Of a DNA stretch of 64,000 nt, positions 2,132-48,292 are shown piece after piece. Origin of the DNA: an uncultured Planctomycetales bacterium (GTDB lineage Bacteria; Omnitrophota; Gorgyraeia; Gygaellales; Profunditerraquicolaceae); NCBI GenBank assembly GCA_964545575.1, contig CAZJFL010000009.1:19574-83573 (forward strand). The letters run 5' to 3'. The notes beneath the pieces are model-generated. The model saw only the letters and a program-made list of their open reading frames with translations. It was not told the DNA's origin and did not search any database. Made by a program: the position numbers and the translations under genes. Within the stretch, counting starts at the first letter, position 1, and every line of letters starts with the position of its first letter.

Positions 2132-3289
2132 ATGTTTAAGCCCTCGAAAAAATTACAATCGCTGCCGCCGTATTTGTTTGTGGAGATTGATAAGGCCAAA
2201 AGGAAAGCGCGCGCGGAAGGAAGAGATATTATTGATTTAGGGATTGGCGACCCGGATCTGCCGACGCCGCGACATATTATTGAGGCGCTTTATCAGGCAG
2301 CGCAGGATCCGGCCACGCACCGCTATGCCTTGGATCAGGGGATGCCGGCGTTACGCCGCACTATCGAAGGCTGGTATCAGCGAAGATTCGGCGTCAATCT
2401 TAATCCGGATACGGAAATTCTTCCTTTAATCGGCTCAAAAGAGGGAATCGCGCATTTTTCTTTAGCATTTTTAAATCAAGGAGATTATTCCCTGGTGCCT
2501 GATCCCTGTTATCCGCCTTATAAAGGTGGAACGATTTTAGCCGGAGGCAGGCCGTATTCTATGCCCCTTTTACCAGAAAATGAATTCCTGCCGGACTTAA
2601 GAAAAATTCCTTTGATCATACGTAAAAGAGCAAAAATAATTTACATTAATTATCCTAATAACCCCACTTCGGCAACTGCCGAAATTGATTTTTACCGCCG
2701 GGTGGTGGAATTTGCCCAAAAAAATAAGCTGATTGTGATTTCTGATTTGGCTTATTCAGAGATGAGCTATGACGGCTACCAGCCATCGAGTTTCCTGGAG
2801 GTTGAGGGCGCCAGAGAAGTGGGTATCGAGTTTCATTCGCTTTCTAAAACCTATAATATGACCGGTTGGCGCATCGGTTGGGCTTGCGGCAATGCTAATT
2901 TAGTGGCAGCCTTAGCAAAAGTCAAATCTAATGTCGACTCCGGGATATTTTCTGCTGTGCAGCTGGCAGGTATTGCTGCTTTGGAAGGCCCGCAGGATCA
3001 CCTGCATAAAATGTGCGAGATTTATCAGGAAAGGCGGAATATTCTCGTAGAGGGCTTGAAATCTTTGGGCTGGCATGCTGAAAAACCAAAAGCCACATTT
3101 TACGTTTGGATTAAAACACCTAAAAGCTCGCATTCCATACACTTTGCGCAAACCTTACTGGATAAAGCTAATATTGTGGCAACACCCGGAGTGGGCTTTG
3201 GCAGATTTGGCGAAGGTTACATCCGCATGGCTCTGACCGTGCCAAAAGAAAGAATCAAAGAGGCGGTGGAGCGGATCAGGAAATTATGA
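2132..3289 (+). CDS. dapL: LL-diaminopimelate aminotransferase (class I PLP aminotransferase)
   Basis: 385 aa. The N-terminus LPPYLFVEIDK...IDLGIGDPDLPTP and the SKTYNMTGWR PLP-lysine region fit class I aminotransferases. Its position after dapA and dapB suggests the DapL bypass of the lysine pathway. Confidence 0.7.
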   Translation: MFKPSKKLQSLPPYLFVEIDKAKRKARAEGRDIIDLGIGDPDLPTPRHIIEALYQAAQDPATHRYALDQGMPALRRTIEGWYQRRFGVNLNPDTEILPLIGSKEGIAHFSLAFLNQGDYSLVPDPCYPPYKGGTILAGGRPYSMPLLPENEFLPDLRKIPLIIRKRAKIIYINYPNNPTSATAEIDFYRRVVEFAQKNKLIVISDLAYSEMSYDGYQPSSFLEVEGAREVGIEFHSLSKTYNMTGWRIGWACGNANLVAALAKVKSNVDSGIFSAVQLAGIAALEGPQDHLHKMCEIYQERRNILVEGLKSLGWHAEKPKATFYVWIKTPKSSHSIHFAQTLLDKANIVATPGVGFGRFGEGYIRMALTVPKERIKEAVERIRKL

Positions 3290-3687
3290 CCGTCTGTTTT
3301 TTAGGTATAGGTTCAAATTTGGGCAACCGCTATAAAAATATAAAATTGGCACTAGAAAAAATCAACCGTTTGAAAGATACACAAATCCTGGAAAGTTCCC
3401 GGATTATCGAAAGCGAGCCTGTGGGCGGCCCGCTTGAGCAAGGTAAATTCCTTAACGCTGTTTTAAAGATGAGGACAGCGCTCTCGCCGTCCCTCCTCCT
3501 TAAAAAATTAAAAAATATCGAAAAGGAATTGGGCCGTATTAAGTCGGTACGTTTCGGACCGCGCGCGATTGATTTAGATATTTTATTATACGGTGATAAG
3601 ATTCTTAAAAATAAGAAATTAGAGATTCCCCATCCGCGGATGTTTGCGCGGGATTTTGTAATCACGCCACTTTTAGAGATATTATGA
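3286..3687 (+). CDS. folK: 2-amino-4-hydroxy-6-hydroxymethyldihydropteridine pyrophosphokinase (HPPK)
   Basis: 133 aa. It contains IGSNLGNR, GPRAIDLDILLY and PHPRM, the typical HPPK motifs. The start overlaps the dapL stop by 4 nt. Confidence 0.85.
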   Translation: MTVCFLGIGSNLGNRYKNIKLALEKINRLKDTQILESSRIIESEPVGGPLEQGKFLNAVLKMRTALSPSLLLKKLKNIEKELGRIKSVRFGPRAIDLDILLYGDKILKNKKLEIPHPRMFARDFVITPLLEIL

Positions 3688-14717: not shown

Positions 14718-15884
14718 ATGAAAAATGTAATTTCTAAAAAAGTAATGGAGATGCAACCTTCCGGGATCAGGGCCTTCTTTGACCTGGTGCTCGGAATGAA
14801 GGATGTCATCTCCCTGGGCGTAGGAGAGCCGGATTTTGTCACCCCCTGGCAGATACGCGAGGCAGGGATTTATTCTCTGGAAGAGGGTTTTACCTCTTAC
14901 ACCTCCAATAAGGGGCTCTATAAATTACGTTTAAGTATATCCCGTTACTTAAAAAATAGATACGGTTTGGAATATTGCCCCGATGAAGAAATCCTGATTA
15001 CCGTGGGCGTCAGCGAAGGCTTTGATCTTACCTTGCGCGCGCTGATCAACCCCGGCGATAAAATATTGATCCCTGAGCCCTGCTATGTTTCTTACGGGCC
15101 GCTGGTAGATTTAGCAGGGGGGATGCCGGTCTATATAGATACGCGCGATGAGGATTTTAAGATTACGCCCGGCAAAATTAAAAAGTTCATTGATAAGAAA
15201 ACCAAGGGGATCATCCTGAATTATCCTACCAACCCCACGGGAGTTTCTTATACCAGAAAAGAACTGGAGGCGATTAATAAAACCGCTCTTCAGCATAAAT
15301 TAATCGTAATATCCGACGAGATATACGGGGACCTGACTTACGACTTTGAACATACGCCGTTTCCTACGCTTAGCGGCGCCAGGAATAATACCGTCTATCT
15401 TAACGGATTTTCCAAGAGCTATGCCATGACCGGCTGGCGCGTGGGTTTTGTCTGCGGCAATAAGGATATCATCGCCGCGATGACTAAGATCCACCAGTAT
15501 ACTATCATGTGCGTTCCGATTACTTCGCAAATGGCAGCTTGCGAGGCTTTGCAGGCAGGGCGTAAATCAGTAGAAGAGATGAAGCGCGAATATAGAAGGC
15601 GCCGGGAGCTGATCATAACAGGGCTAAATGGATTAGGTTTAGAATGTAAAACTCCCGAAGGCGCATTCTATGCTTTCGTAAACATCAGAAAAACCGGGCT
15701 TAGCTCGCTTGCCTTTGCGCAAAAATTGCTTAAAGAACAGAAAGTAGCGGTTGTCCCGGGGACTGCTTTCGGCAGGGGTTACGATGATTATCTGCGCATC
15801 TCGTATGCTTCTAGTACCGATAACCTGAAAGAAGCTTTAAACAGGATAGAGGTTTTCTTAAAATCAATCCGGAGGAAAAAATGA
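14718..15884 (+). CDS. Class I/II PLP-dependent aminotransferase (aspartate/aromatic aminotransferase family)
   Basis: 388 aa with GEPDF near the N-terminus and the SKSYAMTGWR PLP-lysine motif. Confidence 0.8.
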   Translation: MKNVISKKVMEMQPSGIRAFFDLVLGMKDVISLGVGEPDFVTPWQIREAGIYSLEEGFTSYTSNKGLYKLRLSISRYLKNRYGLEYCPDEEILITVGVSEGFDLTLRALINPGDKILIPEPCYVSYGPLVDLAGGMPVYIDTRDEDFKITPGKIKKFIDKKTKGIILNYPTNPTGVSYTRKELEAINKTALQHKLIVISDEIYGDLTYDFEHTPFPTLSGARNNTVYLNGFSKSYAMTGWRVGFVCGNKDIIAAMTKIHQYTIMCVPITSQMAACEALQAGRKSVEEMKREYRRRRELIITGLNGLGLECKTPEGAFYAFVNIRKTGLSSLAFAQKLLKEQKVAVVPGTAFGRGYDDYLRISYASSTDNLKEALNRIEVFLKSIRRKK

Positions 15885-17218
15885 GCAAGGCAAAGCCAAA
15901 AACGGCATCTGAGTTGATGAAATTAGTAAAAGAAAAAAAGGTTAGATACATCAGGCTTTGGTTTACCGATGTGCTGGGTTTCTTAAAAGGTTTTACCATC
16001 ACCATTAATGAACTGCCTCGTGCCTTAGAAGACGGGATGGGGTTTGACGGCTCATCAATCGAGGGTTTTGCGCGGATCGAGGAATCGGATATGATCGCCA
16101 GGCCCGATATCAGGACCTTTGCAATACTGCCCTGGGAGTCAAAGGATGAGCCTGTGGCGAGGATGTTCTGCGATATCTACAAGCCCGACGGCAGGCCCTT
16201 TGAAGCCGATCCCAGATATGTCTTGAAGAAAAATTTAGAGCGTGCCAAGAAACTAGGCTTTATTTATTACGTGGGGCCTGAGCTGGAATACTTTTATTTC
16301 AACAACCCCAAGAATACAATTATTCTGGATAAAGGCGGATATTTTGATCTTACGCCGCTAGATGTAGCGCAGAGCGTCAGGAACGAAACCGTTTCCAGCC
16401 TCGAAGACTTAGGGATTATCGTCGAATACAGCCATCATGAAGTCGCCTCCAGCCAGCATGAAATCGACTTAAGATACAGCGATGCGCTCTCCATGGCAGA
16501 TAACGTCATGACCTATAGATTAGTAGCCAAAGAAATTGCCCAGGCAAAGGGCCTGCACGCCAGCTTTATGCCCAAACCGGTCTTTGGGATTAACGGTTCG
16601 GGAATGCATACGCATCAGTCTTTGTTTAAAGGTTCAGCTAATGCCTTCTTCGAGAAAGGCGGACAATACCATCTTTCCAAGGTTGCGCAGCAGTTTATCG
16701 CCGGGCTGCTGAAGCACGCGGTGGAGATAACTTCGGTGACCAATCAGTGGGTCAACTCTTACAAGCGTCTTGTCCCCGGATATGAAGCGCCGGTTTATAT
16801 CTGCTGGGCGCAGATGAACCGTTCGGCGCTGATCCGCGTGCCGATGTATAAGCCGGGAAAAGAAAAAGCGACCCGTATTGAATACAGGTCTCCGGATCCG
16901 GCCTGTAACCCTTATTTGGCATTTTCGGTGATGTTAGCTGCCGGCCTGGAAGGCATTAAGAATAATTATAAGCTGACTGAGCCAGCCAATGACAATATCT
17001 ATCATATGGGCGAAGAGCAGCGGGACAGGGTCGGGATAAAATCGCTTCCCGAAGACCTGCTGGAGGCGATTAAAATTACCGAGAAAAGCAAATTAGTGCG
17101 GGAGTGCCTGGGGGATAAGGTGTTTGAGTATTTCATCCGTAATAAGAAGGTGGAATGGGATGAATATAAGGCGCAGGTCACCCAGTACGAAATAGACAGG
17201 TACCTGCCGATACTCTAG
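15881..17218 (+). CDS. glnA: Glutamine synthetase family protein (type I-like), copy 1
   Basis: 445 aa with a GS beta-grasp N-terminal domain and a catalytic domain (GPELEYF, NGSGMHTHQS, RVP). Confidence 0.8.
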   Translation: MSKAKPKTASELMKLVKEKKVRYIRLWFTDVLGFLKGFTITINELPRALEDGMGFDGSSIEGFARIEESDMIARPDIRTFAILPWESKDEPVARMFCDIYKPDGRPFEADPRYVLKKNLERAKKLGFIYYVGPELEYFYFNNPKNTIILDKGGYFDLTPLDVAQSVRNETVSSLEDLGIIVEYSHHEVASSQHEIDLRYSDALSMADNVMTYRLVAKEIAQAKGLHASFMPKPVFGINGSGMHTHQSLFKGSANAFFEKGGQYHLSKVAQQFIAGLLKHAVEITSVTNQWVNSYKRLVPGYEAPVYICWAQMNRSALIRVPMYKPGKEKATRIEYRSPDPACNPYLAFSVMLAAGLEGIKNNYKLTEPANDNIYHMGEEQRDRVGIKSLPEDLLEAIKITEKSKLVRECLGDKVFEYFIRNKKVEWDEYKAQVTQYEIDRYLPIL

Positions 17219-17229
17219 GGTTAAAGGCT

Positions 17230-17955
17230 GTGGCAAAAAAAGGCAAATATCAGATTTACATAAAACAGATAGAGGCCCTTTCCAAGATAGCAAACCTCAT
17301 CACTTCCGGACTGTACTTAGAAGAGCTGTTGCGCCTTATCGTGCAGGTCACCTCCGAAATTATGAACTCCAAAATTTCTTCTTTGATGCTGGTTGACCCG
17401 GACAAGAAAGAGCTGGTGATTAAGGCTACACAGTCTATTTCGGAGGCCTATAATAAGAAACCTAACCTTAAATTAGGGGAAGGGGTATCCGGTATAGTCG
17501 CCAAAGAAAATAAACCGATCTGCGTTCTGGATGTCAAAGAAGACAGCCGTTACTTAAACAGGGATGTAGCTAAAAAAGAGGGGTTATGTTCTTTAGCCAG
17601 CGTTCCTTTGGCGGTAAAGGGGAGGGTGATCGGGGTGCTTAATTGTTATACTTCTGCTAAGCATAAATTTAGTAAAAATGAACTGGATATCCTGACCGCT
17701 TTAGCTAACCAGGCGGCATTGGCTATAGAGAACGCGGAGTTAGATTTAAGGGTGCGCACTGCCGAAGAGGCCCTGACTACCCGTAAGCTTATCGACCGCG
17801 CAAAAGATGTCCTTTCGCGCGAGGCGAATATTCTGCCCTCTGAGGCCTACCGGTTGATTCAAAAACAAAGCATGGATAGCCGCAAATCCATGCGCGAGAT
17901 TGCCGAAGCGATAATTTTAACCAAAGATATCAAAGATAAGCAAAGAGAAAAATAA
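17230..17955 (+). CDS. GAF-ANTAR RNA-binding antiterminator regulator, copy 1
   Basis: It has an N-terminal GAF domain and the C-terminal ANTAR motif EALTTRKLIDRAKDVLSRE...SMREIAEAII. It lies directly downstream of glnA copy 1. Confidence 0.75.
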   Translation: MAKKGKYQIYIKQIEALSKIANLITSGLYLEELLRLIVQVTSEIMNSKISSLMLVDPDKKELVIKATQSISEAYNKKPNLKLGEGVSGIVAKENKPICVLDVKEDSRYLNRDVAKKEGLCSLASVPLAVKGRVIGVLNCYTSAKHKFSKNELDILTALANQAALAIENAELDLRVRTAEEALTTRKLIDRAKDVLSREANILPSEAYRLIQKQSMDSRKSMREIAEAIILTKDIKDKQREK

Positions 17956-18656: not shown

Positions 18657-20046
18657 AATTAGCAATAGGCAAAGCAAAGGCAGGCAGGAAGAGTTGCGGG
18701 ATTTAGAAGCGAAATTCTGTTCCTGGGGGGATACCGTGCATTATGCCAAGAACCCCAAAATATTTTCCCGCGCCGAGGGGTGCTATCTTTATGACCGGGA
18801 GGGCGTTGCGTATTTAGACCTGCAGATGTGGTATTCGGCGGCCAATTTTGGCTATAAGAACAACAGGTTAAATCAGGCGCTGAAAGACCAGATCGATGAG
18901 CTTCCGCAGCTTGCCTGTCAGTACCTCCATGAAGAAAAGATTGCACTCGCCGCCAAGATCGCCCAGCGCATAGAATTGACTTTTGAGGAAAAAGGAAGGG
19001 TGCATTTTAATGTCGGCGGTTCCGCGGCGGTGGAAGATTCCTTAAAATTAGTCCGCAACCATACGGGCAAGAACCTGGTCTTTGCCTTTATGGGCGGTTA
19101 TCACGGAAGGACCTTGGGCGCCTCCGCCATTACCTCCAGTTACCGCTACAGGGAAAAGTTCGGGCATTTTTCAGACCGGGCGCATTTTATTCCCTACCCC
19201 TATTGTTTCCGCTGCCCTTACGGAAAAAGAAAAGAATCCTGCGAATTGTATTGCCTGAAACAATTCGAGCGCCTTTTTGAGAGCGAGTATTATTCGGTAT
19301 TAAACACCAAGACCAACAAATGCGAATTCGGGGCTTTCTATATAGAGGCGGTGCAGGGGACAGGCGGCTACATCATCCCTCCGCGCGAATATTTTTCCAA
19401 ATTAAAAGAGATACTGGATAGATATAATATACTCCTGGTGGATGATGAAGTTCAGATGGGATTTTTCCGGACCGGAAAGTTCTGGGCGATAGAACACTTT
19501 GATGTGGTGCCCGATATTATCGTATTCGGTAAAGCCCTTACCAACGGCCTTAACCCGCTTTCGGGGATCTGGGCTAAAGAGAATCTTATTTCTCCCGAAG
19601 CATTCCCTGCCGGATCTACCCATTCCACATTTTCTGCTAATCCTCTGGGCACAGCCGTAGGTCTGGAAACGATGAAACTGATAGAAGAATCAAAGTTCGC
19701 CGCAGAAATACCCGAGAAGGGAGAGTATCTGGTATCCAGATTTAAAAATCTGCAGAAGAAATACCGCCAGATAGGGGATGTCGACGGGTTGGGCCTGGCC
19801 TTAAGGATAGAAATCTGTTATGAAGACGGCTTTACCCCCAATAAAGAACTGACCGACGCCATAACCGATATCGGCCTTGAGGGAAAACTTTCTTATCAAG
19901 GCAAAAAGATGGGATTAGTCTTGGATGTCGGCGGCTACTATAAAAACGTCTTTACCATTGCGCCCTCATTCTATATTTCAAAGGAAGAAATGGATCTTGC
20001 CGTTGAACTCTTCGAAAAGGCTTTGCAGCTTGCGCTTAAAATTTAA
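18634..20046 (+). CDS. Class III PLP-dependent aminotransferase
   Basis: 470 aa with GGYHGRT, DEVQMGFFRTG, FGKAL and THSTFSANP motifs. Confidence 0.75.
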   Translation: MVRKEKVKISNRQSKGRQEELRDLEAKFCSWGDTVHYAKNPKIFSRAEGCYLYDREGVAYLDLQMWYSAANFGYKNNRLNQALKDQIDELPQLACQYLHEEKIALAAKIAQRIELTFEEKGRVHFNVGGSAAVEDSLKLVRNHTGKNLVFAFMGGYHGRTLGASAITSSYRYREKFGHFSDRAHFIPYPYCFRCPYGKRKESCELYCLKQFERLFESEYYSVLNTKTNKCEFGAFYIEAVQGTGGYIIPPREYFSKLKEILDRYNILLVDDEVQMGFFRTGKFWAIEHFDVVPDIIVFGKALTNGLNPLSGIWAKENLISPEAFPAGSTHSTFSANPLGTAVGLETMKLIEESKFAAEIPEKGEYLVSRFKNLQKKYRQIGDVDGLGLALRIEICYEDGFTPNKELTDAITDIGLEGKLSYQGKKMGLVLDVGGYYKNVFTIAPSFYISKEEMDLAVELFEKALQLALKI

Positions 20047-31703: not shown

Positions 31704-31732
31704 GAGCGCAAGAAATAAAACTAAGTTAGTTA

Positions 31733-31826
31733 AGCGCCCGAACATATATGATTGTTCGGCGTGCGCTTACTGCGCTAACGCCCGAACATATCTGATTGTT
31801 CGGCGTGCGCTTACTGCGCAAGGAGG
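31733..31826 (+). repeat. Two tandem copies of the structured unit (31733-31776, 31777-31826). The second ends in AAGGAGG before the gdhA ATG at 31832.
   Basis: They are near-identical to the third unit at 22373-22420 (gcccgaaca, loop, tgttcggc, then gcgcttactgcgc). Confidence 0.7.
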
Positions 31827-31831
31827 ATAGG

Positions 31832-33169
31832 ATGTCAAAAAAGGTGGAAGAGTTTATGAGCAAGGTAGCGGCAAGAAATCCGGGAGAGCCGGAATTTCAT
31901 CAGGCAGTGCGCGAAGTTGTAGAGTCAGTAATGCCTTTTATTGAAGAGAACCCGAAATACCAAAAAGCCAAAATATTAGAAAGAATAGTGGAGCCGGAGC
32001 GCGTATTGATGTTTCGCGTTCCCTGGTTTGACGACAAAGGAGAGATTCAGGTAAACCGCGGCTACCGTATAGAAATGAGTAGCGCCATCGGCCCCTACAA
32101 AGGCGGTTTGCGTTTCCATCCTACCGTGACTTTAAGTATTTTAAAATTTTTGGCTTTTGAGCAGGTGTTTAAGAATAGCCTTACCACCCTGCCCATGGGC
32201 GGCGGCAAGGGCGGTTCGGATTTTGACCCCAAAGGTAAATCCGATAATGAGGTGATGCGTTTCTGCCAGAGTTTTATGACCGAATTGCAAAGGCATATCG
32301 GCCCGGATACGGATGTGCCTGCCGGAGATATCGGCGTAGGCGGACGCGAAATCGGATTTTTGTTCGGACAATATAAGAGGCTGCGTAATGAGTTTAGCGG
32401 CGTGCTTACCGGCAAAGGCCTGAACTGGGGCGGAAGCTTGATCCGTCCGGAAGCCACTGGTTACGGCTGTGTTTATTTTGTCCAGGAGATGCTTAAAACA
32501 AAAGGCGAGTCGTTAAAAGGAAAAGTCTGCGCTGTTTCCGGTTCCGGCAATGTCGCCCAGTACACCGTAGAAAAGCTTCTGGATTTAGGGGCAAAGGTGG
32601 TGACTTTGTCAGACTCCAACGGTTACATTTACGATAAAGGCGGCATTGATAAGAAGGAACTGACTTGCGTGATGGATCTGAAAAATATCAAGCGCGGCCG
32701 GATCAAGGAATGTGCTAAGGAATTCAACTGCGAATATTTCGAGAATAAGAATCCCTGGAGCGTAAAATGTGACATAGCTTTCCCTAGCGCTACGCAAAAC
32801 GAGATAGACGAAAACGATGCTAAGATGCTGGTGAAAAACGGCTGTATTGCGGTAGGGGAAGGCGCGAACATGCCTACTACGCCTGAAGGTGTAGAGGTTT
32901 TTCAAAAAGCAAAGATTCTCTACGCTCCCGGTAAGGCTTCTAACGCTGGAGGCGTGGCTACTTCGGGCTTGGAGATGTCTCAGAATAGCCAGAGGCTTTC
33001 CTGGACGCGCGAAGAGGTAGATAGAAGGCTGCATGACATCATGATCGCCATACATGAGCAGTGCGTCAAATACGGCAAGGAGGGTAATTATATCGATTAT
33101 GTCAAAGGCGCCAACATCGCCGGGTTTGTCAAGGTGGCCGATGCGATGATAGACCAGGGGTTAGTTTAG
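31832..33169 (+). CDS. gdhA: NADP-specific glutamate dehydrogenase
   Basis: It has the GDH hallmark FKNSLTTLPMGGGKGGSDFDPKGKSDNE and a GSGNVAQY Rossmann motif. The 31796 start only translates the repeat. Confidence 0.9.
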   Translation: MSKKVEEFMSKVAARNPGEPEFHQAVREVVESVMPFIEENPKYQKAKILERIVEPERVLMFRVPWFDDKGEIQVNRGYRIEMSSAIGPYKGGLRFHPTVTLSILKFLAFEQVFKNSLTTLPMGGGKGGSDFDPKGKSDNEVMRFCQSFMTELQRHIGPDTDVPAGDIGVGGREIGFLFGQYKRLRNEFSGVLTGKGLNWGGSLIRPEATGYGCVYFVQEMLKTKGESLKGKVCAVSGSGNVAQYTVEKLLDLGAKVVTLSDSNGYIYDKGGIDKKELTCVMDLKNIKRGRIKECAKEFNCEYFENKNPWSVKCDIAFPSATQNEIDENDAKMLVKNGCIAVGEGANMPTTPEGVEVFQKAKILYAPGKASNAGGVATSGLEMSQNSQRLSWTREEVDRRLHDIMIAIHEQCVKYGKEGNYIDYVKGANIAGFVKVADAMIDQGLV

Positions 33170-33182
33170 TCAAAAAATACTC

Positions 33183-33211
33183 TTGACAAATCAGCGATCG
33201 CATGTTATAGT
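33183..33211 (+). promoter_or_regulatory. Sigma70-type promoter: TTGACA, a 17-nt spacer, then TATAGT
   Basis: The -35 box is at 33183-33188 and the -10 box at 33206-33211. Confidence 0.6.
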
Positions 33212-33217
33212 TTAGTA

Positions 33218-33298
33218 GAAATATAAATTAAGGGCACAAGGTTTGTGCTAGAAAGAAAGGACAAGGGTGTTCGTGGAAACGAGCACCCTTTTTATTTT
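33218..33298 (+). ncRNA. Short promoter-proximal transcript or leader of about 80 nt. It has a hairpin gcaca...tgtgc, a second hairpin ggac[AAGGGT]gttc whose 3' arm overlaps the 5' arm of an intrinsic terminator (gggtgttcg-tggaaa-cgagcaccc plus UUUUU), matching the geometry of an ANTAR target.
   Basis: Seen in sequence. The second hairpin and terminator resemble the element at 38672-38706. Confidence 0.5.
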
Positions 33299-33395
33299 AC
33301 CTTTCTTGATTTTCTGCGTCAGAAAAAATAAGGAGTGTTTCCTTAATATTTTAGCAATGTCCGCTAAGTAACAAGGGCATTCCTTTTAAAACGAT

Positions 33396-33440
33396 GGCGT
33401 TTTATGCCGATATTTTACTGCGGCGTAAAACGCCTTTTTT
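33396..33440 (+). terminator. Second terminator-like hairpin (ggcgtttta...taaaacgcc plus UUUUUU) in the leader of the GAF-ANTAR gene
   Basis: Seen in sequence. Confidence 0.45.
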
Positions 33441-33446
33441 GTTTAT

Positions 33447-34187
33447 ATGCGGCATAAACCTATGCAAAACACGCTTTTTGAAGAGCAGGTAAAGGCTTTA
33501 GTTAAGATCAGCAAGGCCATAGCTTCAGACCTCTATCTGGAGGATATTTTGCGCCTGATAGTTACCGTTACCGCGGAGGTGATGGGTTCGAATATTTGTT
33601 CGTTGATGCTGATTGACGAAAAGAAAAAAGAGCTGGTAATCAGGGCTACCCAGAGTGTCAGCGAAGAATATAATCAAAAGATACCTTTAAAGATAGGTGA
33701 AGGCATTGCCGGAAAGGTTGTGGCGCAGAATAAGCCGATTACGGTTAAGGATGTGACCAAAGAGAAAGAATATAAATATCAGGATATTGCCAGGAAAGAA
33801 GGGTTATGTTCGCTTCTTTGCGTACCTCTGGCGGTAAAAGGAAAACCTATAGGAGTATTGAATTGTTATACTTCTAAACCCCATGATTTTAGCGAAACCG
33901 AAATTGAGATATTGATGTCTATAGCCAATCAGGCGGCAGTGGCGATTGAGAATACGGAGTTGCTGGTAAAAAGTAAAATCATCCAGGAAGAGCTGGAGAC
34001 GCGCAAAAGAATAGAGCGCGCCAAGGGAATCATCATGCATGGCGAAGGGTTGACCGAAGAAGAGGCATATTTAAAGATCCGCAAATACAGTATGGATAAC
34101 CGCAAGACTATGCGCGAAGTTGCCGAAGCGATTATCCTGTCTGATGAGATGAAGAAATTAACAGGTAAAGCGGCCCCGCGCTCATAG
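33447..34187 (+). CDS. GAF-ANTAR RNA-binding antiterminator regulator, copy 2 (alternative ATG at 33462)
   Basis: It has a GAF domain and the C-terminal ANTAR motif EELETRKRIERAKGIIMHGEGLTEEEAYLKIRKYSMDNRKTMREVAEAIIL. It is a paralog of the 17230 gene. Confidence 0.75.
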   Translation: MRHKPMQNTLFEEQVKALVKISKAIASDLYLEDILRLIVTVTAEVMGSNICSLMLIDEKKKELVIRATQSVSEEYNQKIPLKIGEGIAGKVVAQNKPITVKDVTKEKEYKYQDIARKEGLCSLLCVPLAVKGKPIGVLNCYTSKPHDFSETEIEILMSIANQAAVAIENTELLVKSKIIQEELETRKRIERAKGIIMHGEGLTEEEAYLKIRKYSMDNRKTMREVAEAIILSDEMKKLTGKAAPRS

Positions 34188-34258
34188 GGCCAAGGTACCT
34201 TAATCCCAATGTCAGGGAAAATTAAGAACATGAGCAAACAGAAAAAGGAGGAAGTGCG

Positions 34259-35911
34259 ATGAATTTGCAAAGGCCGAACGCAAATGACGCGACTGGGACG
34301 TTTAACCGTTCCAAGAACGTGGTACCGGGTTCTGGTATCTGTTCTCGGTGTGTGGATGGGTGTAAAGGTAACTGCGAAGTCTTCAGGGCGACTTTCCGGA
34401 GCCGCGAGGTTATTTATCCGGGCCCTTTCGGAGAAGTAACTGCTGGAGCGGATAAGGATTATCCCGTGGATTACTCTCACCTAAATATCCAGGGCTATGC
34501 CTTGGGTGCTAAGGGTCTGCCGCAAGGCACAGAAGGTAATCCTGATACGACCAAATTCCCCGATGTGAATACCGAGGCCGAGTACGGCTGGAACTCAAAG
34601 GTAAAAATGAAAGTTCCTATTTTTACCGGAGCTTTGGGCTCAACGGAAATCGCCAGAAAAAACTGGGAGCATTTTGCCGTGGGTGCAGCAATTTCCGGCA
34701 TTACCCTGGTGTGTGGCGAAAATGTCTGCGGTATTGACCCCGGGCTGGAATTGGATAGTAACGGCAAGATCAAGAGTTCGCCCGACATGGACAGGCGTAT
34801 CGAGACTTATAAAAGGTTCCACAACGGCTGGGGAGAGATTTTGGTCCAGATGAACGTGGAAGATACGCGCTTGGGTGTTGCCGAATACGTCAGGAAGAAG
34901 CATAAACTTGACGCTATAGAGTTGAAATGGGGGCAGGGCGCTAAATGTATCGGCGGTGAGATAAAGGTAAAGAGCTTAGAAAGAGCTTTGGAATTACAGA
35001 GGCGCGGTTATATCGTTACTCCTGATCCCTCTCAAGAGGCGAACCAGAGAGCCTTTAAAGACGGCGCAATAAAAGAGTTTGAGCGCCATTCCCGCTTAGG
35101 GTTTGTTTCAGAAGAGGCATTTTTGGCAGAAGTCAAGCGCTTAAGAGGCTTAGGGTTCAAGCGTATTACCTTAAAGACCGGCGCTTATGCCATGCGCGAG
35201 CTGGCCATGGCGATAAAATATTGTTCCCTTGCCGGTATCGATCTTTTGACTATAGACGGTGCACCCGGCGGGACAGGAATGAGTCCTTGGAGGATGATGG
35301 AAGAATGGGGTATCCCTACCTTTTATCTGGAGGCGCTGGCCTATGAGTTCTGCCAGGAATTAGCCAAGAAAGGGATGCGTATTCCGGATATAGCCATAGC
35401 CGGAGGTTTTTCCAGCGAGGACCACGTTTTTAAAGCCTTAGCCATGGGCGCGCCATACGTCAAGGCAGTCTGTATGGGAAGATCCCTGATGATACCCGGC
35501 ATGGTGGGAAAGAATATTGCCAATTGGCTAAAAGAAGATAATCTTCCGCCTACCGTATCAGCTTACGGCAAGACAGAAAAAGAAATTTTTGTCTGTTACG
35601 AAGAGCTGCTTGAGCGATACGGCAAGGAGATGAAAGATATACCCTTGGGTGCGGTGGGGATATATTCTTTTGTGCAAAAGTTAAGGGTTGGTCTGCAGCA
35701 GCTGATGGCCGGTAGCAGGAACTTTAGGCTGAGCGCTATCTCCCGCAATGACCTGATGGCCTTGACGGAAGATGCGGCCAAGGTTTCAGGCATTCCTTAT
35801 GTAATGGATGCCTATCGCAAAGAAGCAGAGGCAATACTTAACGGTAAGGAAACAGTAAGGTTAGAAAACAATTTTAATCACCGTAGGGCCAAGGTAGCGG
35901 TGGGGAGGTAA
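34259..35911 (+). CDS. Stand-alone glutamate synthase FMN-binding domain protein (archaeal-type GltB domain 2) with an N-terminal Cys cluster
   Basis: 550 aa with the N-terminal CSRCVDGCKGNC motif and a TIM-barrel FMN domain with the GAPGGTG and IAGGF motifs typical of GltB-like proteins. Confidence 0.6.
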   Translation: MNLQRPNANDATGTFNRSKNVVPGSGICSRCVDGCKGNCEVFRATFRSREVIYPGPFGEVTAGADKDYPVDYSHLNIQGYALGAKGLPQGTEGNPDTTKFPDVNTEAEYGWNSKVKMKVPIFTGALGSTEIARKNWEHFAVGAAISGITLVCGENVCGIDPGLELDSNGKIKSSPDMDRRIETYKRFHNGWGEILVQMNVEDTRLGVAEYVRKKHKLDAIELKWGQGAKCIGGEIKVKSLERALELQRRGYIVTPDPSQEANQRAFKDGAIKEFERHSRLGFVSEEAFLAEVKRLRGLGFKRITLKTGAYAMRELAMAIKYCSLAGIDLLTIDGAPGGTGMSPWRMMEEWGIPTFYLEALAYEFCQELAKKGMRIPDIAIAGGFSSEDHVFKALAMGAPYVKAVCMGRSLMIPGMVGKNIANWLKEDNLPPTVSAYGKTEKEIFVCYEELLERYGKEMKDIPLGAVGIYSFVQKLRVGLQQLMAGSRNFRLSAISRNDLMALTEDAAKVSGIPYVMDAYRKEAEAILNGKETVRLENNFNHRRAKVAVGR

Positions 35912-36087: not shown

Positions 36088-36144
36088 AAATAAATAGCAG
36101 ATCAGCAAGCAAAGGACTAAGGCGTCCGATATCCAAAGCTGGAT

Positions 36145-36164
36145 AAAGGGCGCCTTTGTTTTTT
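36145..36164 (+). terminator. Intrinsic terminator (aaagg-gcgc-ccttt hairpin plus GTTTTTT)
   Basis: Seen in sequence, downstream of the FMN-domain operon. Confidence 0.5.
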
Positions 36165-36258
36165 AATGAGGGCACAATTTACGGAGCATAAGCGACGTAA
36201 ATTGTATGCCCGAATTAATCCCGCACTTACGCATAAGTGCGGGATAAGAGGTAGGCAG

Positions 36259-36786
36259 ATGACATTCGAGGTATTATTAAAAAGAATATCACCGAAGTTA
36301 AAGGGTATAGCCTATAAATTAAACGGCCGTTATTCTTTTTTTAATGACCAGGATTTATTTCAGGAAGCCTTACTGCACCTCTGGCAGGAGTTTGGGGCAG
36401 GAAAATTAGAGGATAAGACCGATAGCTATATCCTGCAGGGCTGCTATTTTCATCTTAAAAACTATATCCGTAAGACAAATACAAGAAGCAAGGTAGTGAG
36501 CCTCCAGGCGTTTATCGATAATGAAGAGGACTTAAAATTAGAAGAGACGCTATTATTGCAGGACTGTGATCCCCAAGATTATTTCGATTCCTTAAACAGT
36601 AAATTATTGGTAGAAACTATCCACAATAACGGTTTTACGGAAAGAGAAAAGAATATACTTACGCTATATGCGGAAGGACTTACTACCAGAGAGATCGGTT
36701 CCAGGCTTGGGGTTTCGCATGTCAGAGTGGTTAAGCTAATGAGCCGCATCAGAGAGAAGTCAAAAATTTATCTGGATAATTTTTAA
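36259..36786 (+). CDS. Sigma-70 family RNA polymerase sigma factor (ECF-like, regions 2 and 4)
   Basis: Region 2-like FQEALLHLWQ and a C-terminal helix-turn-helix LTTREIGSRLGVSHVRVVKLMSRIR. The start is chosen at ATG 36259 because the 36166 start runs through terminator and hairpin sequence. Confidence 0.5.
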   Translation: MTFEVLLKRISPKLKGIAYKLNGRYSFFNDQDLFQEALLHLWQEFGAGKLEDKTDSYILQGCYFHLKNYIRKTNTRSKVVSLQAFIDNEEDLKLEETLLLQDCDPQDYFDSLNSKLLVETIHNNGFTEREKNILTLYAEGLTTREIGSRLGVSHVRVVKLMSRIREKSKIYLDNF

Positions 36787-36813: not shown

Positions 36814-36945
36814 CCACTTGTAGTGGTATAAGGCACATTGAAGTGTAGCCGGATAAAGGCGTCTTTTGCCCAGCAAGGGCACACCAAACAATCCGATATG
36901 TTTGGGTGTTTCCAGCGTTGGGTTAGCGGACGCTTTTTTGTTTTT
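36814..36945 (+). promoter_or_regulatory. amtB leader. It has hairpins ccac-ttgta-gtgg and gcac[ATTGAA]gtgt (a hexaloop with A at position 1 and G at position 4), a long hairpin acaccaaaca-atccgata-tgtttgggtgt that resembles the repeat-unit stem, and then a terminator (agcgt...acgct plus UUUUUGUUUUU) just before the ribosome-binding site and ATG.
   Basis: Seen in sequence. The hexaloop hairpin is nearly identical to the first hairpin of the glnA copy 2 leader (gcac[ATTGTA]gtgc). Confidence 0.45.
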
Positions 36946-36952
36946 AGGAGGG

Positions 36953-38188
36953 ATGAAAATGATGAATAGCGGTGATACTGCTTGGGTCTTGGTTTCATCG
37001 GCTTTAGTCCTGCTGATGACTCCTGGCCTGGCATTCTTTTACGGAGGGATGGTTAGGAAGAAAAACGTTTTGAGTGTTTTAATGCAGTGTTTCATTATTA
37101 TGTGCGTTTTAAGTATCCAGTGGGTACTCTTTGGCTACAGCCTTTCGTTTCATCCGGGAAACGGATTCTGGGGCGGTTTTGGATGGTTGGGTTTAAACGG
37201 TGTGGGCTTTGAGCCTTACGCAGATTACGCGGCTACTATTCCGCATCAGGCATTTATGATCTTTCAGGCGATGTTTGCGATTATCACACCCGCATTGATT
37301 ATCGGCGCATTTGCTGAGAGGATGAAGTTTTCCGCATTTTTGTTATTTACGGTGCTTTGGGCGACGTTTGTATACGATCCTTTATGTCACTGGGTCTGGG
37401 GCACGGGAGGATTTTTAAAGAATTTAGGCGCGCTTGATTTTGCCGGTGGAACAGTGGTACATATTAATGCCGGGATTGCTGCTTTGGTCACGGCGATAGT
37501 CCTAGGCAAGAGATCAAACTTAAACGGAAATGTGCCTACTCCGCACAACATGCCTTTGGTGGTCTTAGGTACAGGATTATTATGGTTTGGTTGGTTTGGT
37601 TTTAATGCCGGAAGCGCTCTTGCTGCCAATGGGTTAGCGGTAAACGCATTTGTCGTAACCAATACCGCAGCTGCCGCGGCAGGATTAAGTTGGGCTTTGA
37701 TTGAGTGGTGGCGTAACGGCAAGCCTACGATTTTCGGCTTATGTTCCGGAGCTGTCGCAGGCCTCGTTGCAATTACGCCTGCTGCCGGATTTGTAGGTGT
37801 TATACCGGCGATAATCATCGGCCTATTAGTCAGCGTTTTCTGCTTTATTGCGGTAACGCTGATTAAGCCGAAATTCGGTTATGATGATTCGCTGGATGCC
37901 TTTGGAGTGCACTGCATAGGCGGTATCTGGGGAGCTTTGGCTACCGGGCTGTTTGCTTCTAAGGTAATAAATTCCGCCGGCAGCGATGGGCTATTTTTCG
38001 GCAACCCGAAGCAGTTTTTAGTGCAGCTGGCAGCCGTAGCAGTGACGATTATCTACACGGGAGTCGTTACATTGATTATCTATAAACTCGTAGACGTGTT
38101 CGTGGGTATACGGGTTGATGAAAAATCAGAGGCAATGGGGTTAGATTTGACGCAGCATCATGAAAGGGCGTATACGGTATTGGAGTAA
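36953..38188 (+). CDS. amtB: Ammonium transporter
   Basis: It has the Amt signature near the N-terminus (DTAWVLVSSALVLLMTPGLAFFYGG), 11 transmembrane segments and DFAGGTVVHI. GGAGGG lies 8 nt upstream of ATG 36953. Confidence 0.9.
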   Translation: MKMMNSGDTAWVLVSSALVLLMTPGLAFFYGGMVRKKNVLSVLMQCFIIMCVLSIQWVLFGYSLSFHPGNGFWGGFGWLGLNGVGFEPYADYAATIPHQAFMIFQAMFAIITPALIIGAFAERMKFSAFLLFTVLWATFVYDPLCHWVWGTGGFLKNLGALDFAGGTVVHINAGIAALVTAIVLGKRSNLNGNVPTPHNMPLVVLGTGLLWFGWFGFNAGSALAANGLAVNAFVVTNTAAAAAGLSWALIEWWRNGKPTIFGLCSGAVAGLVAITPAAGFVGVIPAIIIGLLVSVFCFIAVTLIKPKFGYDDSLDAFGVHCIGGIWGALATGLFASKVINSAGSDGLFFGNPKQFLVQLAAVAVTIIYTGVVTLIIYKLVDVFVGIRVDEKSEAMGLDLTQHHERAYTVLE

Positions 38189-38548: not shown

Positions 38549-38633
38549 GGAGGGAAGGGAAAGCCTATAAAAAGGTTACCAAAATAGGCTTTATTTTACT
38601 TGTATATAGAGAAGTAGGAAGCTTAAAATTTAG

Positions 38634-38706
38634 GCACATTGTAGTGCGAAAATAAAATATTTGCCTTAAGGGAACATGGGCGTTCTTCGAAAAGAACGCC
38701 CTTTTT
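38634..38706 (+). promoter_or_regulatory. glnA copy 2 leader, an ANTAR-type terminator/antiterminator switch. Hairpin 1 is gcac[ATTGTA]gtgc (38634-38647). Hairpin 2 is gaac[ATGGGC]gttc (38672-38685), and its loop plus 3' arm overlap the 5' arm of the intrinsic terminator gggcgttcttcg-aaaa-gaacgccc plus CUUUUUG (38678-38706).
   Basis: Both hexaloops have A at position 1 and G at position 4. Forming hairpin 2 and forming the terminator are mutually exclusive. Two GAF-ANTAR proteins are encoded in the window. Confidence 0.55.
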
Positions 38707-40321: not shown

Positions 40322-40367
40322 AAAATTTTATCCGGCGGTGCTTAATTTTTAGGCAAGAGGGATAATC

Positions 40368-46556: not shown

Positions 46557-46631
46557 GCGAGAGACGGTTTTACATTGACATCATCCTAAAATATGTTAAA
46601 CTTTTTAGTAGTCCACAGTAGAACTACTGTA

Positions 46632-46672
46632 AACAAAACAATGGCGTTTAGAGGCCGAATTGTCGGCGCTAA
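46632..46672 (+). terminator. Intrinsic terminator or attenuator (ggcgtttag...ctaaacgc around a nested hairpin gccga-attg-tcggc, then UUUUUUU). It lies between a promoter-like element and pyrG.
   Basis: Seen in sequence. The T-run ends about 20 nt before the pyrG ATG. Confidence 0.55.

Positions 46673-48292
<1,620 letters not shown>

Follow-up and report, generated by a model that had tools for sequence, protein, structure and literature searches.

How is a regulator of the GAF-ANTAR class itself switched on in bacteria of the phylum Omnitrophota? The question is raised by a nitrogen-assimilation region within 64,000 nucleotides (nt) of contig CAZJFL010000009.1 (GenBank assembly GCA_964545575.1, forward-strand positions 19,574 to 83,573), a stretch of 45.5% G+C that is called the window below and supplies all coordinates given here. 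Two genes for GAF-ANTAR proteins (ANTAR1 and ANTAR2) are found in it, and the second is preceded by a structured leader that follows the glutamate dehydrogenase gene (gdh). Read directly from the window, this leader consists of three ANTAR-type units in series, two of which carry strong terminators. Judged from its sequence and that of its relatives, it probably serves as a cis-acting, multi-stage attenuation leader, in which ANTAR-type serial antitermination would provide feedback on the two-gene operon of the regulator.

The units share one plan, in which a recruitment hairpin (P1) is followed by a weak hairpin (P2) whose 3' half doubles as the 5' arm of a far stronger one, and two or three such units are stacked within one 230-nt leader (Table 1). 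The leader folds at -92 kcal/mol, compared with -54.3 +/- 4.6 kcal/mol for shuffled sequences (z = -8.2). Ahead of the first unit stands the best promoter-like site within 32000-35000, from which transcription is predicted to start near 33218. An initial annotation of the locus had claimed this promoter, with TTGACA and TATAGT separated by 17 nt, and its presence with 11 of 12 consensus matches and its conservation in orthologs bear the claim out. The transcript of about 80 nt that had been expected to end at a strong terminator likewise agrees with the RNA of about 78 nt that would run from this start to the end of T1.

In unit 1, P1 (inner form GCAC-AAGGUUU-GUGC, 33234-33248) is joined to P2 by a linker of 9 nt. 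The 3' part of the P2 loop together with the P2 3' strand makes up the 5' arm of T1, the common stretch being 33263-33272, and T1 stands at -19.4 kcal/mol versus -2.5 kcal/mol for P2. In unit 3, P2'' overlaps the 5' arm of T2 over 33396-33404, with T2 at -23.1 kcal/mol versus -1.8 kcal/mol for P2''. In both units the two pairings are mutually exclusive. The T2 tail is UUUUUUGUUU, with six U's at 33435-33440; ATG 33447 lies 7 nt beyond them and the conserved ATG 33462 lies 22 nt beyond. The second terminator-like hairpin that had been placed at 33396-33440, just before the start codon, is present. The middle unit (33310-33387) and the anti-terminator hairpin of T2 (33387-33404) were absent from that description. 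The middle hairpin has P1'' at its tip and stands at -17.8 kcal/mol; in many orthologs it is a full terminator with six to eight U's, whereas the window copy is weak and has UUUU only. The sole candidate for a leader peptide, ATG-UCC-GCU-AAG-UAA at 33358-33372 in the P1'' loop, was ruled out because it is not conserved.

Table 1. Leader elements and neighbouring genes, in coordinates of the window
Feature	Coordinates	Strand	Details
Leader under study		+	between the end of gdh and the second GAF-ANTAR gene
Sigma-70-type promoter	33183-33211	+	TTGACA, 17-nt spacer, TG-n-TATAGT; 11/12 consensus matches
P1, recruitment-type hairpin, unit 1	33233-33249	+	GGCAC-AAGGUUU-GUGCU; 7-nt loop, A1, G4, U5
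Helix spanning T1	33253-33307	+	AAGAAAGG (33253-33260) pairs with CCUUUCUU (33300-33307); in the minimum free energy fold
P2, anti-terminator hairpin, unit 1	33259-33272	+	GGAC-AAGGGU-GUUC; hexaloop A1, G4
T1, intrinsic terminator	33263-33298	+	12-bp stem AAGGGTGTTCGT / ACGAGCACCCTT (33263-33290), GGAA loop, tail UUUAUUUU
P1', recruitment-type hairpin, unit 2	33310-33326	+	UUUUC-UGCGUCA-GAAAA; 7-nt loop, U1, G4, U5
P2', unit 2	33329-33345	+	UAAGG-AGUGUUU-CCUUA; competes with 5' arm of middle hairpin
Middle hairpin	33332-33387	+	GGAGUGUUU (33332-33340) pairs with GGGCAUUCC (33375-33383), then UUUU
P1'', recruitment-type hairpin, unit 3	33350-33368	+	UUUAGC-AAUGUCC-GCUAAG; 7-nt loop, A1, G4, U5
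P2'', anti-terminator hairpin, unit 3	33387-33404	+	UAAAAC-GAUGGC-GUUUUA; hexaloop G1, G4
T2, intrinsic terminator	33396-33444	+	14-bp stem GGCGUUUUAUGCCG / CGGCGUAAAACGCC (33396-33434), 11-nt loop, U6-G-UUU tail
ANTAR2, GAF-ANTAR regulator gene	33447-34187 (or from 33462)	+	Pfam GAF_2 1.2e-26, ANTAR (PF03861) 4.2e-21
550-amino-acid protein gene	34259-35911	+	related to glutamate synthase flavin mononucleotide domain; Pfam Glu_synthase 3.6e-16
NADPH-glutamate-synthase-like gene pair and gdh	gdh stop codon 33169	+	
Glutamine synthetase gene, then first GAF-ANTAR gene	15881-17955	+	
ANTAR1, paralog, first GAF-ANTAR gene	17230-17955	+	directly 3' of glutamine synthetase gene

Homologs about 80% identical to ANTAR2 are abundant, and their sources name Candidatus Omnitrophica or Omnitrophota metagenome-assembled genomes. 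For comparison, 80 related loci (L numbers) were taken from species-representative genomes. Species genomes of Omnitrophota that show the whole arrangement, including the promoter, before their orthologous GAF-ANTAR gene number more than 30; the promoter, P1, P2 and T1 precede ANTAR2 orthologs in about 35 loci, and in 13 of these as well as in the window a second match to the covariance model described below lies nearer the gene. The number of units is one (e.g., L030, L022), two (L038, L039) or three, with possibly four in L007. In 26 of the 35 orthologous leaders P1 is preceded, at the same position, by a promoter with 10 or more of 12 matches, and an exact TTGACA is likewise found in 26 of 35. 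The gene 5' of the leader varies among gdh, the ANTAR1 paralog, gltD and the PII gene, and the gene for a 550-amino-acid protein on the 3' side of ANTAR2 is nearly constant. More distant GAF-ANTAR paralogs at 62-70% identity (L041-L080) mostly lack such a leader and gave no added comparison.

In an alignment of 18 full leaders, 91.7% of cells are paired in a ground state of six helices, and compensatory changes affect 30 of its 52 pairs; shuffled alignments gave 12.5 +/- 2.2 and slid controls no more than 14. Without guidance, RNAalifold arrived at P1, T1, the middle hairpin and T2. Covariation backs P1, T1, P1', the middle hairpin, P1'' and T2, and many G-U pairs fit RNA of the + strand only. 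On 22 unit-1 sequences, P1 and T1 together are paired in 94% of cells, with 10 two-sided changes versus 4.5 +/- 1.2 when shuffled. T1 is paired in 96% of cells, with six of nine pairs compensatory and none of 500 shuffles equally good, and the P1 stem shows compensatory changes (AU/GC/GU) at four of seven pairs below a loop whose G4 and U5 are invariant in 22 of 22 sequences. The near-palindrome GCACAAGGTTTGTGC was considered as a DNA operator and ruled out by the G-U-tolerant, compensating stem and the conserved loop. A re-alignment of the P1-P2 segments misplaced P2 loops of 6 and 8 nt and was left out of model building.

Further downstream, P1' (helix 3) is paired in 86.6% of cells and its ortholog loops fit NNNGUNN; the middle hairpin (helix 4) is paired in 92.5%, with five of nine pairs compensatory; P1'' (helix 5) in 96.6%; and T2 (helices 6 and 7) has compensatory changes at nine of 14 pairs. 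The counterpart of P2' reads AAGG-AAUGUU-CCUU in close relatives and GGAU-AAAGAC-GUCC in other orthologs, and its register varies among ortholog subgroups. P2'' is paired in 94.1% of cells, and its pair between columns 260 and 273 is GC in 10 leaders, AU in seven and broken in none. In T2, column 273 has a second partner, column 318 (CG in 10, UA in six). Within this alignment, such a three-way covariation of P2'' and T2 is the signature expected of two mutually exclusive structures. The comparative evidence thus indicates that the leader is a real, conserved RNA element.

A further pairing brackets T1. Its 5' strand, AAGAAAGG, is made of the purine-rich P1-P2 linker and the first two G's of P2, and its 3' strand, CCUUUCUU, directly follows the T1 U-tract. 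The duplex stands at -10.2 kcal/mol in the window, and among 17 orthologs cognate duplexes average -10.4 versus -8.2 kcal/mol for non-cognate ones (permutation p = 1e-4). This helix would form solely in read-through RNA.

It might be supposed that T1 simply ends the gdh transcript, that T2 is a structured spacer and that the likeness to ANTAR targets is coincidental. T1 follows the gdh stop codon at a distance of 94 nt and is the first terminator after it, and it probably does end gdh transcripts as well. As a full explanation this is nevertheless very hard to credit, since a conserved promoter stands between gdh and T1, the leader accompanies the ANTAR gene where gdh is absent, and the same motif is found at glnA, pyrG and amtB. 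The conservation of A1, G4 and U5 in the loops points the same way, as does the enrichment of the corresponding hairpins in the 18 leaders: those with 7-nt NNNGUNN loops number 48 versus 7.2 +/- 2.5 in dinucleotide shuffles, and those with 6-nt A/G-type loops number 68 versus 16 +/- 4.

ANTAR targets have been described as two hairpins with A1 and G4 in the loop, the second of which overlaps a terminator (Ramesh et al., 2012; PMC3369931). The leader shows dual hairpins with a short linker, the overlap of P2 with the terminator, and recurrence at ANTAR genes and nitrogen genes; T1 (12 bp) and T2 (14 bp) have the form of rho-independent terminators. The hexaloop of P2 (AAGGGU) has A1 and G4, and that of P2'' (GAUGGC) has G4 with G1 in the window. 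The P1, P1' and P1'' loops are of 7 nt and all carry U5; P1 and P1'' keep A1 and G4, and P1' has U1. The statement of the initial annotation that the internal hairpins match the ANTAR-target geometry thus stands for the P1/P2 plan and for the overlap of P2 with T1, and fails for the length of the P1 loop, which is 7 nt and not 6. A strict descriptor (two A1/G4 hexaloops and a U-run) found the glnA leader and missed the ANTAR2 leader because of this P1 loop. Rfam gave nothing at gathering thresholds across the whole window, and a permissive scan of 33150-33480 returned only small RNA and microRNA noise far below threshold.

With only unit 1 as its source, a covariance model (R1) matched several other sites in the window: the leaders of glnA (38 bits, E = 1.8e-8) and pyrG (27 bits, E = 1.8e-5), unit 3 of the ANTAR2 leader itself (33373-33440, 18.6 bits, E = 0.005), and a site before a gene for an extracytoplasmic function (ECF) sigma factor (16.6 bits). 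In the related loci it matched leaders of amtB, pyrG, gltB, PII, gdh, the 550-amino-acid protein gene, the sigma gene, and DHOD-B-like and nadE-like genes. The genes so matched are the nitrogen regulon expected for ANTAR systems, and in the loci examined no gene but that of the regulator is preceded by stacked units.

These other leaders differ in detail. The glnA leader (38631-38706, textbook copy 38634-38687) is a canonical unit with P1 GCAC-AUUGUA-GUGC, P2 GAAC-AUGGGC-GUUC and an overlapping terminator. The amtB leader (36831-36955), found by eye, has P1 GCAC-AUUGAA-GUGU, P2 GGAU-AAAGGC-GUCU and an unusually long terminator hairpin, lengthened by an insert, which reaches to about 36934 and closes with a U-run; translation of amtB probably begins at ATG 36953, behind GGAGG, and not at the listed TTG 36866. 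In the leader of pyrG, which encodes CTP synthase (46608-46683), P2 AAAC-AAUGGC-GUUU overlaps the terminator and a sigma-70 promoter lies upstream; a unit of this type also precedes pyrG in L030 and L007, and ANTAR control of pyrG appears, from these sequences, to be a feature of the lineage. At 36097-36160, before the ECF-type sigma gene (36166-36786), a terminator overlaps a GGAC-UAAGGC-GUCC hairpin with U1 in its loop; the element is conserved in L008, L021 and L028, and no clear P1 was found in it. A weak R1 match at 3227-3300 (18.6 bits, E = 0.005), with no convincing P1, overlaps the end of the open reading frame (ORF) 2132-3289 and the start of ORF 3286-3687.

A mechanism that fits this anatomy begins at a strong, probably constitutive promoter, with transcription starting near 33218. 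Since the terminators are far stronger than the P2-type hairpins that oppose them, by about 17-21 kcal/mol, termination would be the default and read-through would need a P2-stabilising factor, namely a protein. Polymerase would thus by default stop at T1, leaving the short RNA, and any polymerase that escaped T1 would meet the middle hairpin and then T2. In the model for EutV, P1 recruits the dimer and P2 is captured next (PMC8934654). Here, an active GAF-ANTAR dimer would bind the P1-type hairpin of a unit through A1 and G4 of its loop and stabilise the very weak P2-type hexaloop hairpin, which would withhold the 5' arm of the terminator and permit read-through. Antitermination would have to succeed stage by stage before the regulator gene was transcribed, so that the read-through probabilities of two or three stages would multiply to set expression, giving low leak and a steep response. 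The gene controlled in this way encodes a GAF-ANTAR protein, which would make the circuit a feedback loop.

Action in cis is argued by several features. A promoter between T1 and the start codon was found in none of the 18 multi-unit leaders, by which a separate internal promoter for the ANTAR gene was ruled out. In four loci (L010, L017, L029, L032) the unit lies inside an operon, 3' of gltD and without a promoter of its own, and there it could act only as an attenuator. The constant linkage to the gene and the T1-spanning helix argue likewise. The same observations bear on another proposal of the initial annotation, that the short terminated transcript may be a decoy small RNA that titrates the ANTAR protein. 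The functional product would then be the abundant 78-nt RNA ending at T1, which would sequester the protein in trans, as EutX/Rli55 sequesters EutV. A near-consensus promoter and an efficient terminator would indeed yield much short RNA with P1 still exposed, and for EutV a single hexaloop hairpin suffices, being bound about as tightly as the complete dual-hairpin eutP RNA (PMC8934654). A decoy of this kind is nonetheless improbable, because the terminated RNA would lock P2 into the far more stable T1, whereas the EutX/Rli55 site has no overlapping terminator (PMC5821096). Each P2-type hairpin of the leader overlaps a stronger hairpin, and without exception the ANTAR gene follows the element directly, no promoter intervening. 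In the four loci named above the element has no promoter of its own. The conserved sequence 3' of the T1 U-tract, moreover, covaries with the P1-P2 linker, which would matter in read-through RNA only, and the same by-product is expected from every ANTAR-controlled leader.

The probable cis-acting attenuation leader would govern two genes. The 550-amino-acid protein gene is probably the second of the operon: of 40 orthologous loci, about 35 place it beside the ANTAR gene, and no terminator was found in the 71-nt spacer that separates the two in the window. The spacer holds a P1-like hairpin without a terminator, CCC-AAUGUCA-GGG at 34205-34217, with a 7-nt loop and A1, G4 and U5; in L052 a complete unit lies at this position. 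At the start of ANTAR2, the conserved ATG 33462 (MQN...) has an in-frame ATG upstream at 33447, and neither is preceded by a Shine-Dalgarno sequence. In many orthologs (e.g., L030, L036, L038) the start likewise lies within a few nt of the T2 U-tract without a Shine-Dalgarno sequence, and T2 may through this crowding also affect translation initiation. In the four loci with promoterless units, a small ORF of 74-79 amino acids sits between the attenuator and the ANTAR gene.

That ANTAR proteins bind the leader is inferred, and so are the identity of the acting paralog, the direction of the feedback and the GAF-domain ligand. The ANTAR domain of ANTAR2 aligns to those of Rv1626, EutV and NasR, and its GAF domain is closest to those of PtsP/EI-Ntr and NifA. 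These GAF domains sense glutamine and 2-oxoglutarate. ANTAR2 has equivalents of EutV R142, K143, K149, E160, Y164, R168, M172 and R175, which in EutV stack on or coordinate G4 and plug the loop (PMC8934654). The two GAF-ANTAR proteins of the window are 56% identical. At the EutV Glu160 position ANTAR2 keeps Glu, and ANTAR1 and its orthologs (L009, L036) have Pro or Ala; Glu160 contacts the flipped G4, and EutV E160A lowers binding 60-fold (PMC8934654). The ANTAR1 gene has no ANTAR-type leader of its own.

The presence of two paralogs allows for a cascade, in which the leader would work as described and be read by another ANTAR protein, such as ANTAR1, so that one regulator would switch on the other. 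This is unlikely, though it is the alternative with the most to commend it. The gene for ANTAR1 lies directly 5' of the leader in L002, L009 and L036. P1 loops are of 7 nt (A-R-N-G-U-N-N) in 32 of 33 ANTAR2 leaders and of 6 nt (AUUGUA, AUUGAA, AUAGAA and similar) at 12 of 14 other targets, which would fit two recognition classes, and ANTAR1 is without the equivalent of the G4-contacting Glu160. The P2-type hexaloops, however, are of the same class in the ANTAR2 leader and at the other targets (AAAGGC, AAUGGC), and ANTAR2, which retains every class of EutV RNA-contact residue, should bind such hairpins. A 7-nt P1 also precedes gdh in L063, and the loop-length contrast, drawn from orthologous leaders, is effectively one evolutionary event. 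Only three loci outside the main clade (L048, L051, L052) were informative for comparing protein clade with loop type, too few to use. The proposal of the initial annotation that the regulator controls its own expression by antitermination in a positive feedback loop is therefore upheld to the extent that an ANTAR-type leader travels with the gene in more than 30 genomes, while the acting paralog and the sign of the feedback remain at the level of inference.

Several points weigh against the attenuation leader as proposed. The second paralog in the window leaves autoregulation and cross-regulation indistinguishable. The P1 loops have 7 nt where 6 define the class, and the P2'' loop has G and not A at position 1, although A stands there in 12 of 17 orthologs. 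The unit-1 P2 pairing, which 22 orthologs show in 90.7% of cells, agrees with the data and is unproven, its changes being one-sided and limited to G-U. The middle hairpin, with four U's only in the window, might not terminate. The T1-spanning helix has no role in the standard ANTAR model, and Rfam holds no curated ANTAR-target family against which the leader could be scored. A more elaborate reading, speculative and rather doubtful, would make four 7-nt recruitment loops, two terminator-embedded hexaloops and the T1-spanning helix into a relay that passes ANTAR dimers along or soaks them up in cis, yielding an ultrasensitive or bistable switch; the 7-nt P1 loop would then be a recognition code, set against the 6-nt loops of the glnA and amtB leaders and read perhaps by one paralog only.

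Comparison with known systems places the proposed serial attenuation leader in a familiar class. In Enterococcus faecalis, the eutS leader lies 5' of eutVW, so that EutVW is also under its own antitermination, and amiR of Pseudomonas aeruginosa lies 3' of the terminator that it relieves, which gives positive feedback. In tandem riboswitches and tandem T-box leaders, serial terminators multiply read-through probabilities and sharpen the response; those leaders sense small molecules or tRNA, whereas the effector proposed here is a protein encoded downstream. Like AmiR at amiE and NasR at Klebsiella oxytoca nasF, the present system would combine protein-dependent antitermination at a leader terminator with an A1/G4 hexaloop, but those leaders have a single unit and sensing is by a partner protein (AmiC) or a NIT domain. 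The EutV/EutW leaders of E. faecalis (eutP, eutG, eutS, eutA) share the A1/G4 P1 and P2 hairpins, the overlap of P2 with the terminator, constitutive promoters in front, and the placing of several leaders under one regulator (PMC3369931, PMC5821096). They differ in that the sensor here is a GAF domain and not a phospho-receiver, the P1 loops are of 7 nt, the units are stacked, T1 is bridged by a conserved helix, and the regulon concerns ammonium assimilation and not ethanolamine use. EutX/Rli55 is similar as an ANTAR-binding dual hairpin made from a constitutive promoter, but its site acts in trans without an overlapping terminator (PMC5821096), while every P2 here is terminator-embedded and 5' of a gene. 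Counterparts in gene content are the ANTAR nitrogen regulons predicted by Ramesh et al. (2012) and that of GnfR, with attenuators before amtB, glnK/PII, glnA and glutamate synthase genes. In Desulfotomaculum acetoxidans, 13 sites in six transcription units were predicted (Ramesh et al., 2012; PMC3369931), and the Geobacter sulfurreducens GnfR site CAGGCAANGGCGCC resembles the P2 consensus found here, C-AANGGC-G (PMC2995071). In contrast to these, the present system belongs to Omnitrophota, has a GAF domain in place of a receiver, and confines stacking to the regulator's own leader in the loci examined.

The surroundings of the leader hold further features. On the + strand 3' of the 550-amino-acid protein gene follow the ECF-type sigma factor, amtB, PII, glnA, gltB/gltD, pyrG and carAB. 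Two direct repeats, each some 44 nt long (31727-31820), adjoin the gdh Shine-Dalgarno sequence on its 5' side, and each contains a hairpin CGCCCGAACA...UGUUCGGCG and GCGC-UUACU-GCGC (fold z = -3.4); they have no Rfam match and are absent from the orthologous loci inspected, and the true gdh start is probably ATG 31833. A palindrome, TGCTTAATTTTTAGGCA, lies at 40339-40355 before a small Fis-like helix-turn-helix ORF 5' of gltB, and the near-identical TGCCTAAAAATTAGGCA is found just before the ANTAR2 ribosome-binding site in L003, L010, L017, L019, L026, L029, L032 and L040. This motif might be an operator bound by a protein, or else a hairpin in RNA.

The class of mechanism is already known from EutV, NasR, AmiR and GnfR, and the gain is incremental and not conceptual. 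New here are the phylum, a sensor of the GAF type, a leader on which the regulator's own gene has two or three stacked units, conserved recruitment loops of 7 nt and the T1-spanning helix. The GAF-ANTAR class was termed uncharacterised by Ramesh et al. (2012; PMC3369931), and a literature search gave nothing on ANTAR in Omnitrophota or on GAF-ANTAR function. GAF-ANTAR proteins are a large and uncharacterised class of RNA-binding regulators, and Omnitrophota are without a cultured representative. For this phylum, the locus offers a testable picture of how amtB, PII, glnA, gltB, gdh and pyrG are wired. It also provides natural variants for studying how ANTAR proteins read RNA, among them loops of 7 versus 6 nt, leaders of one, two or three units, and a paralog without Glu160.

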